Virus record (IMG/VR): IMGVR_UViG_3300042923_000172
Span: 1-38,240 of that record
DNA length: 38,240 nt
Source of the DNA: a virus
Taxonomy: Duplodnaviria > Caudoviricetes
Strand: one strand, 5' to 3'
Under the pieces are notes generated by a model. It made no database searches, was not told the DNA's origin, and was given only the letters and a program-made list of their open reading frames with translations. A program made the position numbers and the translations under genes. Below are positions 3,894-34,070 of this stretch, in pieces (within the stretch, counting starts at the first letter, position 1; every line of letters starts with the position of its first letter).

Positions 3894-4082
3894 ATGGCGT
3901 TTATGAATAATAAAAATACAATACCAACCACAAGCGGCATAACGGCCGAAACATGCGGGCGATGTGGGCGGCTATTGAAAAACCAAAAGAGCCGCAATAA
4001 AGGATTTGGCCCGAAGTGTTTTAGAAAGTGGAAAGCAGATGGGCATCCTGTACAAACTGAAATTGATGAATTTTTAGAGTAG
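3894..4082 (+). CDS. Small Zn-finger protein (DUF6011-like)
   Basis: CGRCGRLLKNQKSRNKGFGPKC. Confidence 0.7.
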   Translation: MAFMNNKNTIPTTSGITAETCGRCGRLLKNQKSRNKGFGPKCFRKWKADGHPVQTEIDEFLE

Positions 4083-4125
4083 GCCGGGGATTAATTACCC
4101 CGGTTTTTGTTTTAATAGGTTATTG

Positions 4126-4157
4126 TTGTTTACAAAGTAAACAAATTACTGTACAAT
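4126..4157 (+). promoter_or_regulatory. SigA-like promoter overlapped by palindromic operator GTTTAC-N3-GTAAAC
   Basis: TTTACA-17-TACAAT; palindrome TTGTTTACAAAGTAAACAA. Confidence 0.65.
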
Positions 4158-4189
4158 AGGTTTATAGAATAATTTAGGAGGGGGATAAC

Positions 4190-4963
4190 ATGAAACACAT
4201 TATTAGTTTTTCCGGCGGGATCGGTTCATACATGGCCGCAAAACGAGTTATTGAGGAGCATGGAGCGGAAAACACTTTATTAGTTTTTACAGATACAAAA
4301 ATCGAGGATAATGATTTATATAGGTTTATGGATGATGCTGTTAAAGATTTAGGGGCCGAGTTTATAAAATTACAGGATGGACGGGATGTTTGGCAAGTAT
4401 TTTTCGATGAGAAATATATCGGTAACACCCGCAACGGCAATTGCACTCGCAATTTAAAACAAATTGTTTTTCGTAAATGGATTGAGGAGAATTATGCACC
4501 GGATCAATGCATTGTTTATATTGGCATTGATTGGAGCGAAGAATACCGGTATCAAAAGGCAATACCGCATTGGTTGCCATATACTGTAAAAGCGCCAATG
4601 TGTGATGCGCCATTTATGGATAAAAAAGAAATGTTTGAGGTTTTAAAAAATAGGGGCATTGAGTTGCCGAGGTTGTACCAAATGGGGTTTGCACATAATA
4701 ATTGCGGCGGTTTTTGCGTAAAGGCGGGCCATGGGCATTTTAAAAACCTATTGGAAAAGATGCCGGATCGTTTTAAATACCATGAAGAAAAAGAGCAAGA
4801 GTGGCAAATGGTAACCGGCAAAAAAAATACTATTTTAAGAGACAGAGCGGGCGGCAAAACAAAGCCATTAACATTAAAAGAGTTTAGAGAAAAAATAGAA
4901 AACGATAATATTAAACAATTAGATTTTGAAGATATTGGCGGGTGTGGTTGTTACCCGTACTAA
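4190..4963 (+). CDS. PAPS-reductase-like PP-loop (adenine nucleotide alpha hydrolase) protein, Cys-rich
   Basis: ISFSGGIGS PP-loop variant, CTRNLK, HNNCGGFCVKAG, C-terminal GGCGC. Confidence 0.75.
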   Translation: MKHIISFSGGIGSYMAAKRVIEEHGAENTLLVFTDTKIEDNDLYRFMDDAVKDLGAEFIKLQDGRDVWQVFFDEKYIGNTRNGNCTRNLKQIVFRKWIEENYAPDQCIVYIGIDWSEEYRYQKAIPHWLPYTVKAPMCDAPFMDKKEMFEVLKNRGIELPRLYQMGFAHNNCGGFCVKAGHGHFKNLLEKMPDRFKYHEEKEQEWQMVTGKKNTILRDRAGGKTKPLTLKEFREKIENDNIKQLDFEDIGGCGCYPY

Positions 4964-5101
4964 CAAGGCCCGGGCAACCGGGTTTTTTATTTGCCAAATT
5001 ATCAGTATATGCAAATTTTTATAAAATATTCTAAAAATATACTTGTACTATTTTGTAAAGTGAGGTAATATAATAATAGATTTAGAAAAGGAGGGCCGAC
5101 A

Positions 5102-5272
5102 ATGAACGAGTTGTTAACAATTAAAGAAATGGCCGAAAAATTAAAAGTTAGCCGCCAAACTATTTACGAATGGCGTAAAAAGGGTATGCCATATAAAACC
5201 ATTGGTGCCGTTATTCGTTTTGATATTAATGAGGTTGTAATTTGGATCGAAAAGCAAAACGAGGGGCAATGA
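5102..5272 (+). CDS. Excisionase-like/HTH_17 DNA-binding protein (56 aa; not in ORF track)
   Basis: MNELLTIKEMAEKLKVSRQTIYEWRKKGMPYKTIGAVIRFD; RBS AAGGAGG. Confidence 0.8.
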   Translation: MNELLTIKEMAEKLKVSRQTIYEWRKKGMPYKTIGAVIRFDINEVVIWIEKQNEGQ

Positions 5273-5273
5273 A

Positions 5274-6035
5274 ATGGCTAATCCGCAAGCTGAAAACGGT
5301 TATACAAGATTAGCCAACGAAATATTGGAGATAATGGCCAAAGTTAAATTAAGTCCAACGCAATACCGTTTGTTGTTTGTTGTTTGGCGTTTTACATATG
5401 GTTTTAACCGTAAAAGCCATAATTTTAGTTTAGGTTTTTTGGCTAATGCAACCGGATGCGATAAAAGGAGCATACAAAGAGATTTAACCAAACTAGAAGA
5501 AAAAAAAGTAATATTACAAGAAGTAAAAAACGGGGTTGGCCGAGTGATTGAATTTAATAAAAATTACGATGATTGGTTTGAAAGCATTGGCGAAACTACC
5601 AATGGTCAAATAGCCAATGGTCAAATAGCCAATGGCGAAACTACCAACACAAGCGTTGGCGAAACTACCAATGGTACCATTGGCGAAATAGCCAACCAAG
5701 AAAGAAATAAAGAAAACTATAAAGAAAATACTACTACAACAGACTGCTTTAATTTTTACGAACAAAATTTTGGATTATTAACTTTTCATATTAGCCAAAA
5801 GATAGGAGCATGGTTAGAAGATTTTAACGATCAAGACGAAATACTTATTTATGCCATGCAAATTGCATTAGAACGAAATAAACGTAATTTTGGTTATGCG
5901 GAAAGTATTTTAAAAGATTGGTATAGCAAAAACGCTAAGAGTTTAAAAGATTGTGAGGCATTACAAAACGAGTTTTTAAGAGTAAATGTTAAACCGCACA
6001 AAAAACAAAACAATATAGATTGGGAAAACGTATAG
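5274..6035 (+). CDS. Replication initiator (lambda O-like N-terminus plus DnaD-like C-terminal domain)
   Basis: ANPQAENGYTRLANEILE...RFTYGFN; FYEQNFG...YAESILKDW. Confidence 0.85.
   Translation: MANPQAENGYTRLANEILEIMAKVKLSPTQYRLLFVVWRFTYGFNRKSHNFSLGFLANATGCDKRSIQRDLTKLEEKKVILQEVKNGVGRVIEFNKNYDDWFESIGETTNGQIANGQIANGETTNTSVGETTNGTIGEIANQERNKENYKENTTTTDCFNFYEQNFGLLTFHISQKIGAWLEDFNDQDEILIYAMQIALERNKRNFGYAESILKDWYSKNAKSLKDCEALQNEFLRVNVKPHKKQNNIDWENV
5588..5695 (+). repeat. Six 15-bp iterons, probable replication origin
   Basis: TGGCGAAACTACCAA / TGGTCAAATAGCCAA units at 5588, 5603, 5618, 5633, 5657, 5681, followed by an A-rich tract. Confidence 0.8.
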
Positions 6036-24218: not shown

Positions 24219-24452
24219 TTGGATTTGATCGTAAAAGTTAATAATCAAACGGTTAACTATGCCCGTAATTCAATTGATGTGGATGATGCTATTGGCCAAA
24301 GGTCAACAGCATCATTTGTAGTCATTGATCGAGAAGGTACCATGAGGTTTAAAAAAGGGCAACAGGTAGAGATATTCCAAGAAGTTGCCGCCAATACCGG
24401 TGATTATGCAACGTGGGATAATGACGATTTAACAAACAATTGGGAGGGATAA
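24219..24452 (+). CDS. Small tail protein, probably the N-terminal portion of the baseplate hub/Tal protein
   Basis: RSTASFVVID...FKKGQQVEI resembles the first beta-strands of tail hub proteins; that fold appears to continue at KIFGGVID in 27120-28709. Confidence 0.55.
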   Translation: MDLIVKVNNQTVNYARNSIDVDDAIGQRSTASFVVIDREGTMRFKKGQQVEIFQEVAANTGDYATWDNDDLTNNWEG

Positions 24453-24455
24453 AAA

Positions 24456-25934
24456 ATGGAATTTACCCCAAATAGTAATTTATACAAATGGAAACCAACA
24501 GACATAAAACTTAATACCATTACCGAAATGGCCGCAAATGCGGAAAAAATAGATAGTGAATTAAAAAATGTTAATGAACAATTGGCGGAAACTGTGAAAC
24601 AAATTAGTGTAAAAGATGTACGTTTTGGAGCGAAAGGTGATGGTATTACAGATGACACTAGTGCTATTCAATCGGCTTTCGAGTATGCAAAAGTAAACGG
24701 AATCTCAAAAGTTAAAATACCGATTGGAACTTATAAGATAACTAAAATCACCATTGATTTTAATGGGGTGACGATTGAAGGGGATGGAATAGATTTAACT
24801 GTTCTAAATTCCACACTTTCCGCTGGAGGGGCTTTTAGTTTCGGTAGTGTTTCTGCCCCATTAAAAAATATTGTTGTTAAAGATATGACCATACAAGGGA
24901 ATACGTCCTCTGCAAATCAATCAGCATTGCGTTTTTATGGGGTAGATACGTTAGAGGTAACTAGAGTTAAAATGAATAAGTTTGGATTTTGTGGGATAAC
25001 CTCTTTTGAAAATATTTTTCAAAACGTCACCATTACTCAGTGTCAGTTTATAGAAACAGTTGAAAGCGGGATGAGTGTTCGACCTTGCAACAATGTAATA
25101 GTTGATGGCTGCATTTTTGACAATATTTACGGTAACGCAAATCCACCTCATGGTGTTTATTTCAGAAGTACACCACAATACGGATCGAAAAACTTAACTG
25201 TTCGTGGTTGTATTTTTAGGAATACACCTGCTTCAACGATTGGAAATGCTTATGCCGTTAAGATTGTTTGTGATAACCCAACAACGGACTTACCAACAAC
25301 AGATGTCATTGTACAAGGCAACTACATTGAAAATTATTTTGCGGGTGTTTGGGTAGTTGGTGCTAAACGAGTTCATATCGCAAACAACCGTATCGAATCA
25401 ATGTCTGAAATTCAAACTCAACGTGCTGCTATTGGGTGTAGCAATCTATCCGAAGATATTGTAATTGCCAATAATAATATTAATGCTCGTAATCTCACTA
25501 ATTCATTGAATTTAGATGGTTGTAATCGAATCTTAATTGTAGGGAATGTAATGGAAACCGAGAAAGCCATCCCAATCTCACTAAAAAACATTAACGATTT
25601 AACCATTCAAAATAATGTTATTAAAGAAACATTGTCCACGGGGTCTAATAATGCCGTTATTGATTTTGATGGTGTTTGTACAGATTTTAAGATTAAAAAT
25701 AACACATTTAAAATTAGTCAACGGGGTATTCAACAACGAAACACATGTACGATTACGGGACTTGTTATTAGTGGTAACAGCATCAATCCTATTGAGGGCA
25801 GTACTCCAGTTTACGCTATTAACCTAGCAGGAACCATCGCAAACACGATTGTTACAAACAATGACTTAGTTGGGGCGGGAATTACCACACTTAAAACGTC
25901 TACCCAAGCAGGAAATATTACCGCATATGCTTAA
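24456..25934 (+). CDS. Tailspike/appendage with right-handed beta-helix (pectin-lyase-like, putative depolymerase)
   Basis: N-terminal anchor TPNSNLYK..D..KID; FGAKGDGITDDTSAIQ; repeated I.I.NN.I beta-helix rungs. Confidence 0.85.
   Translation: MEFTPNSNLYKWKPTDIKLNTITEMAANAEKIDSELKNVNEQLAETVKQISVKDVRFGAKGDGITDDTSAIQSAFEYAKVNGISKVKIPIGTYKITKITIDFNGVTIEGDGIDLTVLNSTLSAGGAFSFGSVSAPLKNIVVKDMTIQGNTSSANQSALRFYGVDTLEVTRVKMNKFGFCGITSFENIFQNVTITQCQFIETVESGMSVRPCNNVIVDGCIFDNIYGNANPPHGVYFRSTPQYGSKNLTVRGCIFRNTPASTIGNAYAVKIVCDNPTTDLPTTDVIVQGNYIENYFAGVWVVGAKRVHIANNRIESMSEIQTQRAAIGCSNLSEDIVIANNNINARNLTNSLNLDGCNRILIVGNVMETEKAIPISLKNINDLTIQNNVIKETLSTGSNNAVIDFDGVCTDFKIKNNTFKISQRGIQQRNTCTITGLVISGNSINPIEGSTPVYAINLAGTIANTIVTNNDLVGAGITTLKTSTQAGNITAYA
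24571..24600 (+). repeat. Cassette-boundary site A (read in frame as VNEQLAETVK)
   Basis: TTAATGAACAA TTGGCGGA AACTGTGAAAC. Confidence 0.7.
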
Positions 25935-25960
25935 TGAACAATCGGACGATTATGCGCAGT
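25931..25960 (+). repeat. Cassette-boundary site B
   Basis: TTAATGAACAA TCGGACGA TTATGCGCAGT; contains the tailspike stop codon. Confidence 0.75.
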
Positions 25961-25991
25961 AGATTATAAAATTCAATCAGCTTGGTAATAA

Positions 25992-26027
25992 CTAACTATG
26001 AGGGCCGCAAACCTTCATAGTTTTTTA
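25992..26027 (+). terminator. Rho-independent terminator after the tailspike gene
   Basis: AACTATGAGGG-ccgcaaa-CCTTCATAGTT-TTTTT. Confidence 0.75.
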
Positions 26028-26109: not shown

Positions 26110-26829
26110 ATGATTGGCGTGATTTTCGGAAATTTAACTGTATTGGGCGAAGTAGGTAAGAACAAAAGAGGTATTTTATTTGAATGTATTTGCAAGTGTG
26201 GAAACAAAAGAGTTTTTCCGGGTAAAGATTTAAGGAGCGGCAATAATAAAAGTTGCGGTTGTTTATTAAAGAAACATGGAATGTCGAGCACACGGATTTA
26301 TATATCTTGGCAAAACATGAAAAAAAGATGCAACGATCCGAATTACAAGGATTTTAAAAATTATGGTGGCCGTGGCATTAAATATTGTGAAAAGTGGGAA
26401 ACGTTTGAAGGGTTTTATGAGGATATGAAAGAAGGTTATGAGGATAGTTTAACATTGGATAGAATCAATGTAGATGGAGATTACACCCTAGATAATTGCC
26501 GTTGGGTTACTTTAAAAGAACAAAGTAACAATAAACGTAACAATCATTTTTTAGAGTATAACGGCGAAGTTTTAACGCTATCTCAAATGGCTAATAAATA
26601 CAACATTGATTTTGAATTGTTTCGCCATCGAATAAAAAAAGGTTGGTCAGTTGAAAAGGCTTTATCTAATAAAACAGAATTAGAGGTTATAAGTTTTAAA
26701 GGTGAAATAAAAACAGTTTCAGAGTTTGCTAAAGAATATGGCATGACCTATCATCAATTAAAAAAACGATTAATGAGGAATTGGACGGTTGAAAGAGCGT
26801 TAACTCAACCATTAAGAAAAAGACAGTAA
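26110..26829 (+). CDS. Putative HNH homing endonuclease (YGGRGI-type)
   Basis: CICKCG, SCGC, YGGRGIKYC, LDRINVDGDYTLDNCRW; duplicated C-terminal HTH-like repeats. Confidence 0.8.
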   Translation: MIGVIFGNLTVLGEVGKNKRGILFECICKCGNKRVFPGKDLRSGNNKSCGCLLKKHGMSSTRIYISWQNMKKRCNDPNYKDFKNYGGRGIKYCEKWETFEGFYEDMKEGYEDSLTLDRINVDGDYTLDNCRWVTLKEQSNNKRNNHFLEYNGEVLTLSQMANKYNIDFELFRHRIKKGWSVEKALSNKTELEVISFKGEIKTVSEFAKEYGMTYHQLKKRLMRNWTVERALTQPLRKRQ

Positions 26830-27119: not shown

Positions 27120-28709
27120 ATGTTGACATGGGAAAGTGAATTAAAGACCGATACATTAAAAATATTTGGCGGTGTGATTGATACACAACCGGTAACCGAT
27201 ATTACGTTATTTGGAACGGGTAAACGTTGGGCCATACAATGTACTGATTACCATTACTTAACTGATAAACGTATTGTAGCCAAGTATTATGAGGATATGG
27301 CCGCCGGCCAAATTGTAAGGAATTTAATTACTCTTTATTTTGCCGCCGAGGGTATAACAGCCGGAAATATACAAGATGGGCCGATTATTACCGAGGCGGT
27401 TTTTAATTATGTAACCGGCACCCGTTGTATGGAGGGATTGAGTGAAAAAGCGGGGTTTGAATGGAATATAAACTACGATAAAACGTTAGATTTTTACGAA
27501 CGTTCAACATTTACGGCCCCGGTTACCATTACCGAAACAAGCAAAATAAAAAACGTAACGGTTGAAGATGAGGCCAAGGATTACCGAAATAAACAATTTG
27601 TGCGAGCCGGGAAAGATTTAACCGATCCACAAACGGAAAAATTTAAAGGTAATGGATCGCAACAATCGTTTACATTAGGATTTCCATTAGGTAAAGAGCC
27701 GCAAATTAAAATTAATGGGGTTGCGTTAAACAATGCGGCTGATATTGGTATTAAAGGGTTAGAGGATGGCAAGCAATGGTATTGGAGCAAAGGGGATGCA
27801 ACTATAACCCAAGAAAAAGAGGCCGTTCCATTGTTAGACACCGATGAAATAGAAATAACATACCAAGGGTTATTTGATATTGTTGCCGTTACATGGGATC
27901 AAAACGAGGTTGAAACCCGAAAGGCCGCAGAAAATAATAGCGGCATATACGAGAATGTTATTGATGAGCCATATGCAACGAACCGGGCCGCCGCATTTGA
28001 AACAGCAAATACCAAATTAAAAAGGTATGCTAAAATCGGGAAAAAAATTAGGTTTGATACATTTATAACCGGGTTTAAAGCGGGCCAATTGGTGATGGTT
28101 GATATGCCTAGTTTTGATATTAACAATAGCCAATTTTTAATTGAAAGTATTGCGGCAACTGAGTTAGGTACCGAAGATGGACGATGTACTTATAAAATTA
28201 CGGCCGTTGATGGAGCCGCAACAGGTGGTTGGGCCGACTTCTTTAAAAAGATGGCAACCCGTGGAGAAAATTTTGTATTAAGAGAAAACATTAAAGAAGA
28301 TGAAGTATTAGTGTTATTAGATCAATTTTCTAAAACATGGACAAGCACCGAGAGGCCTAACCTTTTTTATGAATTATATCCTAGTATGGATTTATACCCG
28401 GCATCCGATTTATTTCCTTCATTGGGTGATGATAATGAGGTAACGTATATTGCCTTATATGATGCAACCGGGGAGTTTTTTAGAAAAAGAATTACCAAGC
28501 AAGAGCGAACCGATACCCAAATTGTTAGTACTACATTTATTTCACCATTCGAGGCAAACGAGGTGCAAATAACGCATGTGGGTTGGTTTGGGGCCAATGC
28601 AACAGATGAAATTGGTAGCGGTTTATTAATAGATAAACAGATTTATAGTAAATTCAAAGATAAAGTTGAAGCTATACAAATTGATAAAATTGATTTGAAA
28701 GGGTGGTAA
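27120..28709 (+). CDS. Baseplate hub/Tal-like tail protein
   Basis: Position; IFGGVID, EDMAAGQIV, C-terminal LYPSMDLYPASDLFPS fibre-docking-type repeat. Confidence 0.7.
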   Translation: MLTWESELKTDTLKIFGGVIDTQPVTDITLFGTGKRWAIQCTDYHYLTDKRIVAKYYEDMAAGQIVRNLITLYFAAEGITAGNIQDGPIITEAVFNYVTGTRCMEGLSEKAGFEWNINYDKTLDFYERSTFTAPVTITETSKIKNVTVEDEAKDYRNKQFVRAGKDLTDPQTEKFKGNGSQQSFTLGFPLGKEPQIKINGVALNNAADIGIKGLEDGKQWYWSKGDATITQEKEAVPLLDTDEIEITYQGLFDIVAVTWDQNEVETRKAAENNSGIYENVIDEPYATNRAAAFETANTKLKRYAKIGKKIRFDTFITGFKAGQLVMVDMPSFDINNSQFLIESIAATELGTEDGRCTYKITAVDGAATGGWADFFKKMATRGENFVLRENIKEDEVLVLLDQFSKTWTSTERPNLFYELYPSMDLYPASDLFPSLGDDNEVTYIALYDATGEFFRKRITKQERTDTQIVSTTFISPFEANEVQITHVGWFGANATDEIGSGLLIDKQIYSKFKDKVEAIQIDKIDLKGW

Positions 28710-31922: not shown

Positions 31923-32150
31923 ATGGGTAAAAATTTATTGGAAGGTTTAGAAGGTAAAAAGGTTTTTCCGTTGTTTACTAAACAAGGATTGGCCGCACGT
32001 TGGGGCGTTGATCGTCAAACGGTGCAAAATTGGAGTACAAGGCATACGGATTTTTGCAAACCGATTAACGGCGTAATCGTTGGGGCCGGATCGTATTATC
32101 CTTTTTATGAGGTTGAACGTTATGAGACATTAAGGGGGTTGGGGAAATGA
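31923..32150 (+). CDS. HTH DNA-binding protein (AlpA/MerR-like)
   Basis: TKQGLAARWGVDRQTVQNW. Confidence 0.7.
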   Translation: MGKNLLEGLEGKKVFPLFTKQGLAARWGVDRQTVQNWSTRHTDFCKPINGVIVGAGSYYPFYEVERYETLRGLGK

Positions 32151-32284
32151 CATTAGAAGAATTAATGAACGAGGAGTTGTTAGAGGTTTTGAAAGAAGCG
32201 GTTGAAGAATTGCCGGGCGGTGGCGCAAAAGCTAGAAATTGGTATTGCGAAGTGAAAGAAGAAGTTTTGAGCCGTATGGATTAA
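32147..32284 (+). CDS. Hypothetical protein (45 aa), stop inside site C
   Basis: MTLEELMNEELLEVLKE...VLSRMD; ATGA-coupled. Confidence 0.55.
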   Translation: MTLEELMNEELLEVLKEAVEELPGGGAKARNWYCEVKEEVLSRMD

Positions 32285-32310
32285 TGAATAATCGACCGAA
32301 ATAGCGACAT
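32281..32310 (+). repeat. Cassette-boundary site C
   Basis: TTAATGAATAA TCGACCGA AATAGCGACAT. Confidence 0.7.
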
Positions 32311-32326
32311 AAAAGGATGTGGAGAA

Positions 32327-32911
32327 ATGAACGAAGAAATCCAATTTTTAAAGGATTTACAAAACGAATTAAAATCACAAGAAAATGACTGTCAAGCAAG
32401 CCCGCGTTTTTGGGTGATTAAAGACTACCGTAAAGTTGTGGGGCACGAAGATTATGACACTGGAAGCACAGAACACTTTCACAATGATGGTGACCATACC
32501 ACCTTTAAAAATTTCGCTGAGTTAAAGGTATTTATCGAGGAATATTTTGAGGAAGATGTTGAATCAGATGAAGAATTACAACAACTACTTTCAGATGAAA
32601 ACGAGAGTTTTTATGAATTGTGGGATTATGTTGAATCTAACCTCAATGACGATGGATATTTTTCTTCAGTTTTCATGAAAGAAGAAAGTTACCTTGTGCC
32701 TAACACGATGTTCTTGACTAAGGAAGAAGCTAAAAGACATTTGAAATTAAATAATTATCATTATTCTCCAAAGGCACACACCTACGCCATGACTGCATGG
32801 AGAGCACCTAAAGTAGAACGGTTATTGAAGTTATTAGAAACATTCGATTGGGATTCAATTAAAGTATTAGAAAAAGCTTATAGTGATGGTACTGATTACA
32901 AAAGAAGTTAG
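32327..32911 (+). CDS. Acidic hypothetical phage protein (cassette C-D)
   Basis: QENDCQASPRFW...MFLTKEEAKRHL...AHTYAMTAWRAP; stop inside site D. Confidence 0.75.
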   Translation: MNEEIQFLKDLQNELKSQENDCQASPRFWVIKDYRKVVGHEDYDTGSTEHFHNDGDHTTFKNFAELKVFIEEYFEEDVESDEELQQLLSDENESFYELWDYVESNLNDDGYFSSVFMKEESYLVPNTMFLTKEEAKRHLKLNNYHYSPKAHTYAMTAWRAPKVERLLKLLETFDWDSIKVLEKAYSDGTDYKRS

Positions 32912-32937
32912 TGAACAATACGATAAAACCACAAACT
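32908..32937 (+). repeat. Cassette-boundary site D
   Basis: TTAGTGAACAA TACGATAA AACCACAAACT. Confidence 0.6.
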
Positions 32938-33040
32938 TTCGGTTTCTAGGAGAATTGAGTGGTATGGTTTACCGAATGTCTTTTGAAATGGATATCGACG
33001 GAAAAACAAAGGAATATATGGTGATAGTTAATAACTTAGA

Positions 33041-33059
33041 TTAGCGAACAATTTGGAAA
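33041..33059 (+). repeat. Cassette-boundary site E (left arm only)
   Basis: TTAGCGAACAA TTTGGAAA, then RBS GGAGG. Confidence 0.55.
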
Positions 33060-33072
33060 GGAGGAATAAAAA

Positions 33073-33228
33073 ATGCAAGATAAATATCTAATCATTTATC
33101 AAAATTCAGCTTGTTTGTTTAGAAGAGAAATTGTCAGTGTAGAGGATTTGAGTTATTGGGTAGATAAAATCGTTAATGATTATAAAGGTGAGATTTTCAC
33201 CATTAGCAAATGCTTAGTTAGTGCGTAA
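33073..33228 (+). CDS. Hypothetical protein (51 aa; cassette E-F)
   Basis: MQDKYLIIYQNSACLFRRE...CLVSA; RBS AAGGGAGG. Confidence 0.6.
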   Translation: MQDKYLIIYQNSACLFRREIVSVEDLSYWVDKIVNDYKGEIFTISKCLVSA

Positions 33229-33247
33229 TTCGAAAATTTCACGACAA
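33218..33247 (+). repeat. Cassette-boundary site F
   Basis: TTAGTGCGTAA TTCGAAAA TTTCACGACAA. Confidence 0.55.
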
Positions 33248-33437
33248 AACAAAAATAGTTTTAATGACCATGCATTTTTTACTATATGGCCGCATAGCTA
33301 TATAGCAAGCATGCTAATAGCTAGTGAGATGATCCGGGAGAAATTTTCCCGGATTTTTTTATTTTTTCGGAAATCTATTTACAAAATTATAAAAATACGA
33401 TATTATCGCTAATATCAAAATGAAGGAGGAATTAGCA

Positions 33438-34070
33438 ATGAATAGATTTTCAAGGCCGGTAGCTTTTAATAAAACAAAGGATGTTGACGTTGCTATTTTA
33501 AAACATTTGGAAGGAGTGGCCTCATTTTCCGGGTATGTAAAAAAATTAATAATACAAGATATTAACGTTGGCGGAACAATGAAAAAAAACACGTTAAAAA
33601 AACACTTAGAACATATTGATTTGGATCGGGTTACGATAATCGAAAAATTACCAAAAACCAAGTTGCATGCAAGATGGGTAACAATGAAACATCGTTGTTA
33701 TGAAGTTACCAATAATAACTATGAAAATTATGGCGGGCGTGGCATAACCGTTTGCGATCGTTGGCACGACTTTAATTTATTTTTAGAAGATGTTTTTGAT
33801 AGTTATATTGACCACGTTATAGAATACGGTGAAAAAAATACAACGCTTGAAAGAGTGGATAACAATAAAGGTTATAGTCCAGAAAATTGCCGTTGGGCAA
33901 CACATGAGGAACAAGTTACTAACCGCCGTTATAGATACAGTTATGAATACAACAATAAAACATATAATACGGCGCATAGCTTGGCAATTGAATTGGGTAT
34001 AAGTACGCAAGCTGTAAATAACATGGTGAAAAAAGGAGAAGTAAAAAAACGAGCCAACAAGGCCCGTTAA
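33438..34070 (+). CDS. RHH-like domain fused to a YGGRGI-type HNH endonuclease
   Basis: N-terminal RPVAFN...SFSGYVKKLIIQD; C-terminal YGGRGITVCDRW...LERVDNNKGYSPENCRW. Confidence 0.7.
   Translation: MNRFSRPVAFNKTKDVDVAILKHLEGVASFSGYVKKLIIQDINVGGTMKKNTLKKHLEHIDLDRVTIIEKLPKTKLHARWVTMKHRCYEVTNNNYENYGGRGITVCDRWHDFNLFLEDVFDSYIDHVIEYGEKNTTLERVDNNKGYSPENCRWATHEEQVTNRRYRYSYEYNNKTYNTAHSLAIELGISTQAVNNMVKKGEVKKRANKAR

Follow-up and report, generated by a model that had tools for sequence, protein, structure and literature searches.

Directly repeated Xer-like 32-bp sites at the borders of a tail-spike module and an accessory gene slot in a temperate phage genome, likely crossover joints of a recombinase supplied in trans

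A row of small phage genes, each ending within a copy of the same short motif, raises the question of whether such motifs are crossover joints at which phages exchange genes and, if so, which enzyme would act on them. The row lies in IMG/VR record IMGVR_UViG_3300042923_000172 and was analysed in the context of the whole 38,240-nt stretch (hereafter, the window), a contig with a 127-bp terminal overlap, so that the window represents a complete circle. PHROG and Pfam annotation describes a temperate phage of siphovirus-like type, whose genes include FtsK, replication-relaxation, ERF and RusA and no integrase. The same annotation and tblastn searches with two tyrosine recombinases returned no tyrosine recombinase from the complete genome; thus, the enzyme would have to be supplied in trans. 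From homologues in 24 of 151 genomes, we infer a Bacillaceae host. The 529-aa tail gene retrieved no relatives among viral contigs and the HTH gene only two distant loci, and no cultured phage matches the tail or array DNA beyond single genes.

Six direct motifs and two foreign segments

A previous sequence-only reading had reported six copies of the motif, A to F, and all of them were recovered at their positions (Table 1). The pattern TTARYGMRYAA, composed once the sites had been seen, matches the window (both strands searched) six times, at the six sites only, and the same pattern plus the following T occurs on average 0.47 times, with a maximum of three, in 200 dinucleotide shuffles. The six motifs are a confirmed, real feature of the window. 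All are located on the + strand and no minus-strand copy exists in the complete genome. Their length, formerly given as 30 bp, is corrected to 32 bp by the symmetry axis, which allows an 11-10-11 or a 13-6-13 division. The proposed arm/core/arm architecture of the tyrosine recombinase type is found as 13-6-13 symmetry, two arms flanking a 6-bp core, in B and in the consensus of the host chromosomal sites described below. Stop codons of the upstream ORFs, claimed for C to F, were located in all four (C 32282-32284, D 32909-32911, E 33042-33044, F 33226-33228), and B holds one as well (25932-25934).

A, B and C are full sites and F a weaker one; D and E are better read as half-sites. With a right-arm model built from 31 other tail sites, the score of A, B and C is reached by 0.1-0.3% of window positions (0.3% for C), that of F by 2.8%, that of E by 13% and that of D by 50%. 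The half-site status previously assigned to E stands, and D, previously taken as complete, lacks a right arm too. Three models trained without the window all place A, B and C in their top 7. In the host-only model, B ranks 1, A 2 and C 7 of 38,209 window positions, and D, E and F are low; this model misses phage-type arms and phage-trained models were used instead. The two phage models give F ranks of 16-23 and D ranks of 27-54, and E is low in all three models. An accessory-site model trained on 41 accessory sites of other prophages ranks C 2, F 23, D 54 and E 1,817 of 76,418. By slot, the cores read TTGGC (A), TNGGA (B), TNGAC (C), TACGA (D) and TTCGA (F). The whole-site pattern gave four matches in viral contigs, all by chance, and the A-type pattern a single match in 401 genomes.

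Table 1. Genes and sites of the two site-bounded segments, in window coordinates
Feature	Position	Strand	Remarks
Tail-spike gene, 492 aa	24456..25934	+	~40-aa anchor, then foreign beta-helix; PHROG tail spike, Pfam Beta_helix
Site A, full 32 bp, core TTGGC, in frame	24571..24602	+	Start of tail module
Site B, full, core TCGGA, holds tail-spike stop	25931..25962	+	End of tail module
45-aa ORF left of array, stop codon within C left arm	32147..32284	+	Sequence
Site C, full, core TCGAC	32281..32312	+	Left joint of accessory slot; rank 2 of window
194-aa cargo ORF, PHROG 3205, function unknown	32327..32911	+	Common in Bacillota phages
Site D, left arm + core TACGA	32908..32939	+	Right-arm position is coding sequence, truncated gene
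3' half of 72-94 aa gene, cut at D	32920..33044	+	Five longer homologues
Site E, left arm only	33041..33072	+	Ribosome-binding site at right-arm position
51-aa cargo ORF	33073..33228	+	Last codons enter left arm of F
Site F, weaker full, core TTCGA	33218..33249	+	Right joint of accessory slot

The DNA between C and F was said to lack GGCC and to look foreign, and both statements are borne out. GGCC occurs 216 times across the window, whose two longest GGCC-free gaps span 24530-26003 and 32084-33288. A third-order Markov composition scan, blind to the motif and with a backbone model trained without the A-B and C-F regions, ranks 24649-25997 (103 bits) and 32250-33245 (76 bits) as most foreign, the next segment reaching 20 bits; A-B and C-F are the two most foreign segments of the genome. 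Similarly, of 41 segments compared, C-D, A-B and D-F have the three highest CT odds. The backbone itself is rich in GGCC and CCGG and shuns CT and TC (odds 0.1-0.5), an avoidance that perhaps reflects DNA modification or mutation bias.

The best explanation for the six motifs is that they belong to a 32-bp Xer-like site family that marks where modules meet in Bacillota phages. In the open-access literature that was searched, neither these sites nor their enzyme turned up, and within it the family is undescribed.

The tail-spike module between sites A and B

The strongest evidence is carried by A and B, of which the sequence-only reading had made little use. In the tail spike, N-E-Q-L-A-E, the translation of site A, connects the anchor with the beta-helix; the anchor (~40 aa) has backbone composition and the domain between A and B is foreign. 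P0002 is a free-standing domain, 53% identical to the tail-spike domain, beginning just past A, and P0003 has in common the anchor only, joined to another domain. Here, a putative crossover site within a receptor-binding gene joins a constant part to a variable one.

Scans with left arm plus core patterns yielded 5, 24 and 42 loci, which were split into tail genes and chance matches by PHROG (34 proteins), shared anchors and context; removal of duplicates and of the minus-frame L083 left 32 tail sites and 26 control sites, all distinct. Position 26, a third codon position outside the search patterns that mirrors position 7 of the left arm, is G in 29/32 tail sites as compared with 2/26 chance matches and a background of 330/2,638 (12.5%); this G was spotted by eye prior to counting. 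When A-type sites are compared in pairs (which overlap in membership), 11 pairs keep 46-60 of 60 upstream bases, the shared anchor, and lose identity in the right arm, and two pairs present the reverse, with the module in common and identity ending just left of the site. A single BLAST match (3996-5867, 99.9%) connects the prophages L161 and L163, which have one genome number in common in their record ids; it corresponds to the A-to-B segment and runs from 5 bp before A through the final base of B.

A second site, mostly with a TNGGA core as in B, lies 1-3.5 kb past A in 16 of the 19 tail loci with at least 2 kb downstream and in none of 17 controls. According to our own reading, half of the prophages found through FtsK alone (10/20) carry A- or B-type sites, and five of the FtsK-found prophages have, as in the window, a stop codon inside B. 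The cultured phage TPELB_ph1 (PP197244) presents an in-frame site, a strong site at the tail-gene stop and a recombinase next to it. The expectation that gene-content breakpoints of relatives fall on the motifs is thus upheld at A- and B-type sites in other phages; C to F have no close relative on which it could bear. Contigs of two sequencing runs, from which the window DNA possibly derives, contain no joint at any of the sites; since contigs lose rare forms, this result carries no weight. We consider it highly probable that the sites are recombination joints.

Other features of the region deserve mention. In L179 (3821-4032), three tandem 60-bp in-frame units with one core, each beginning with an A-type site, lengthen the anchor. 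An HNH endonuclease gene (26110-26829) directly follows B in the window, a place taken in other phages by a small regulator and a 330-aa recombinase, and at least three further HNH genes are present (10-636, 2186-2659 and 33420-34070). The tail-region ORFs at 24219-24452 (77 aa) and 27120-28709 (529 aa) have no PHROG or Pfam match.

Homology-dependent recombination could use the motifs simply as conserved boundaries, for instance through the ERF annealing protein that the phage encodes, and a site-specific enzyme would then not be involved. This would account for the missing recombinase gene, ERF and RusA are both at hand in the window, and sites of the same slot do have ~20 bases of left arm and core in common. 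However, conservation in the right arm falls at the positions that mirror the left arm, a silent base included, and the remainder varies, which argues for protein recognition rather than a homology tract. Sites of the same family also surround a recombinase in host chromosomes. Taken together, we regard a purely homology-driven origin as unlikely.

The accessory slot between sites C and F

The C-F interval consists of single-ORF units in direct orientation. One ORF per interval had been claimed, which is correct except that the D-E ORF is the 3' half of a gene from a 72-94 aa family: five longer proteins (72-94 aa) align with query residues ~11-52 only. Since the piece matches second halves only, from inside D, this site is likely a true left arm plus core fused into a gene interior, a hybrid joint as judged from the alignments. 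On the right side, the final five codons of the 51-aa ORF, unlike those of its 76% identical homologue P0020, extend into the left arm of F, and homology to the distant relative L002 restarts at 33256, 7 bp past F. Both L001 and L002 have different genes at the C-F position and no such sites.

The 194-aa cargo belongs to no Pfam or NCBIfam family and has only unnamed look-alikes among its top Atlas matches. Three of its 80 homologues have the 32-bp site type just upstream, and 16/80 end in an AAAA-N6-TTT joint (background, 2.9%), a pattern formulated post hoc. Homologues with this ending (within L003-L082) come from B. cereus-type and SPbeta-type contexts. Their joint has the 6-bp spacing as well and is possibly a clade variant of the 32-bp site family.

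Pairs of TNGAC and TTCG cores within 1.5 kb were found in nine among 135 loci, eight of the nine ordered C then F, and in none of five shuffles; the model was trained on the counted loci, which inflates the count, not the order. The longest ORFs inside these pairs have no blastp match to one another or to the window cargo. One-sided flank identity among accessory sites was seen only for L039/L040 vs L052, at a different core, and a promoter scan of the array returned 10 sites where 7.3 are expected. Examination by eye also revealed DNA methyltransferase-like genes between accessory-type sites in L276 (oriented 1729-2610) and L409.

The array invites comparison with integron-like stacking, in which the same recombinase clade would insert single-gene circles, one after another, at one site. 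Such a process would fit the single ORF in each interval and the direct orientation, as well as the near-uniform core of the host arrays and the one-core tandem units of L179. Insertion of a circle, on the other hand, should leave two like cores, yet C, D, E and F all differ, and the segment shared by L161 and L163 spans two unlike cores. Because neighbouring cores differ, exchange between phages fits better, and stacking appears quite improbable to us.

A recombinase clade and its relation to known systems

In genome contigs, the 32-bp pattern (13-6-13) was found in 11 places, 10 of them in Bacillales, and nine of these loci hold 71 sites between small genes with an almost uniform core. Long small-gene arrays bounded by the 32-bp site, with uniform core, can be seen in the Bacillaceae chromosomes of L094, L099, L100 and L102. 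Within host arrays, a ~280-aa tyrosine recombinase gene sits between sites, its stop codon being followed by a site ~40-70 bp on. All seven loci taken around this family carry sites, 1-8 each (one of them, L119, overlaps a training locus), and none of eight loci around other recombinases does. One genome, G002, has host arrays and no match to the 280-aa family.

The phage counterpart is a ~330-aa recombinase, 37-42% identical to the host enzyme, encoded ~300-450 bp past B and before a probable holin gene in six loci; L125 also holds an enzyme of this type. From 80 further 330-aa loci, 66 were scored once three contigs already in the set, duplicates and short loci had been set aside. In 18/66 loci, the gene is preceded at a distance of 150-750 bp by a B-like site, against 1/61 downstream control windows, and 48/66 have no B-like site at the threshold. 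The enzyme is missing in 7/10 site-bearing FtsK prophages within the DNA examined. Reverse TAGAC/TTGAC-like cores near the 330-aa gene, several of them downstream, were observed in L344, L352, L353, L363, L364 and L369 and are possibly the attachment site of the enzyme itself. Another candidate, a small catalytic-only recombinase beside ArpU-like genes (5 loci), occurs both with and without sites and is absent from the window, so it was discarded.

Host and phage enzymes form one clade (98/94), separate from XerC- and XerD-like proteins, which were assigned by sequence, in a tree that carries a long-branch warning. Their scores on the XerA-like model, which has a cutoff of 220 bits, are 208-224; the cutoffs for XerC, XerD and IntI are missed by a wide margin, the linked enzymes reaching 96-105 bits against the IntI cutoff of 265. 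The R-to-H spacing of the linked enzymes is 90-91, compared with 95-99 in Xer-like proteins. Position and tree link the 280/330-aa clade to the sites as their candidate recombinase.

An enzyme acting in trans had been anticipated by the sequence-only reading, which is supported, as none is encoded in the genome; the host candidate that it named, RipX/CodV (XerD/XerC) recombining pdif-like sites, does not fare as well. The 6-bp core geometry is identical, a trans supply of Xer is always on hand and an FtsK-like protein is among those encoded by the phage. The 9/11 match to a dif arm noted for B is present in the sequence, albeit confined to that site, and B matches host dif 7/11 in one arm. Nevertheless, the six sites match host dif at 1-7/11 per arm, and host dif (a dif-like site found once each in 3/5 genomes with a dif motif, in species that may not be the phage's host) is below zero on the site models, with -5 to -12 on the phage model and -27 to -30 on the host model. 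Moreover, the sites are directly oriented, no host-type site exists in 20 kb around XerC/XerD-like genes and it is another clade that adjoins the sites, which makes RipX/CodV hardly probable as the enzyme. Operators of a DNA-binding regulator that coincide with gene ends are a highly improbable reading: the motifs are palindromic, often directly precede a ribosome-binding site, and in ~16/20 loci (by eye) B is separated from the recombinase by a small divergent regulator-like ORF, but A lies within a coding region at a base-precise mosaic breakpoint and an operator does not need slot-specific cores in fixed order.

Among known systems, integrons, pdif modules and shufflons each have defining traits that the sites and their modules lack; by analogy, the tail gene recalls Rin and the accessory slot recalls dif modules. 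In Bifidobacterium prophages, as PMC6109161 describes, the tyrosine recombinase of the Rin shufflon adjoins the receptor-binding gene. It acts at rix sites, which are 11 bp long, asymmetric and identical to one another, and inverts silent C-termini that the genome itself stores. As far as that account goes, the two systems agree in that a crossover site, here a putative one, lies within the gene and another directly past its 3' end, with constant N-terminus and variable C-terminus; in the window, in contrast, sites are 32-bp, symmetric, direct and with differing cores, and variation is found between phages. Neither silent tail cassettes nor inverted sites nor a cis invertase are present in the complete window genome, and the accessible part of a paper on inversion contains nothing bearing on 32-bp sites (PMC5903667).

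The pdif modules of Acinetobacter plasmids are flanked by inversely oriented XerC-XerD sites resembling host dif, according to the portion available of PMC9771954. Double-stranded Xer-type sites with a 6-bp core that bound small gene modules, and an enzyme that can act in trans, would be common to both. The former pdif label fails nonetheless, as our sites are direct, have arms unlike host dif and track another recombinase clade. Nor can the integron label be kept. Rows of single genes, a tyrosine recombinase and arrays that can be enzyme-free recall integrons, but the six 32-mers, folded as such, give 0 to -2.6 kcal/mol and no attC-like hairpins, and site A would function inside a gene as well. 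No IntI-type integrase is encoded in the window and the linked enzymes have no insertion in the catalytic domain, a feature of IntI in the available text of PMC8138268.

A Bacillus phage example is the Tyrovirus gp50, a tyrosine recombinase whose gene belongs to the structural module and has an 11-6-11 site next to it. This single site is downstream of the enzyme, between neck and tape-measure genes, and the accessible text of PMC9703825 reads it as a putative attP. The likeness, by description, is that of a tyrosine recombinase beside a site of similar geometry, and that text describes no module exchange for the gp50 site (PMC9703825).

Our analysis points to a reading that we hold to be probable: the sites would be crossover joints of a dedicated tyrosine recombinase that is supplied in trans and swaps matching segments between phages. 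One enzyme would bind both arms, with strand exchange in the 6-8 bp core. Matching cores are a requirement for strand exchange by tyrosine recombinases such as Cre. With unlike cores, direct repeats should be stable and not delete their cargo, and the shared unit would run from the A core to the B core; two crossovers at like cores, between co-resident phage genomes, would then replace the segment. This is the logic of engineered recombinase-mediated cassette exchange (RMCE), in which heterospecific lox or FRT sites have 13-bp arms and a short core, unlike cores prevent deletion and two crossovers replace a segment. The 13-bp arms, the short core and the replacement by two crossovers would be shared; RMCE is an engineering method, whereas the exchange considered here is a natural, putative one.

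Accordingly to this model, exchange from A to B would swap a receptor-binding or depolymerase domain in frame onto a fixed anchor. The C-F interval would be an accessory slot, filled in this genome by a block from another prophage; D would likely be an off-target scar, and E a site that has decayed. A co-resident prophage with its ~330-aa recombinase, or the host with the ~280-aa relative, would be the likely source of the enzyme. Some prophages would have the gene of the cassette-exchange recombinase between their tail and lysis genes, hosts would have it in gene arrays, and the window phage would be a free rider of the system. For the broader proposition, a natural cassette exchange in which a regulated Xer-like recombinase reads core addresses and swaps tail-spike domains, in frame, and accessory genes, slot by slot, across unrelated phages, we see the chances as evenly balanced.

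The usual explanation for phage mosaicism and for swaps of receptor-binding domains is illegitimate or relaxed homologous recombination. In the present case, the joints coincide with defined sites for which there is a candidate enzyme, and this opens the question to direct test. If true, our reading would provide a site-specific engine for phage mosaicism and host-range change, and the recurrent Q-L-A-E junction of Bacillota tail proteins would be explained as a DNA signal. It would also tie phage modules to host gene arrays and provide a natural set of orthogonal recombination sites.
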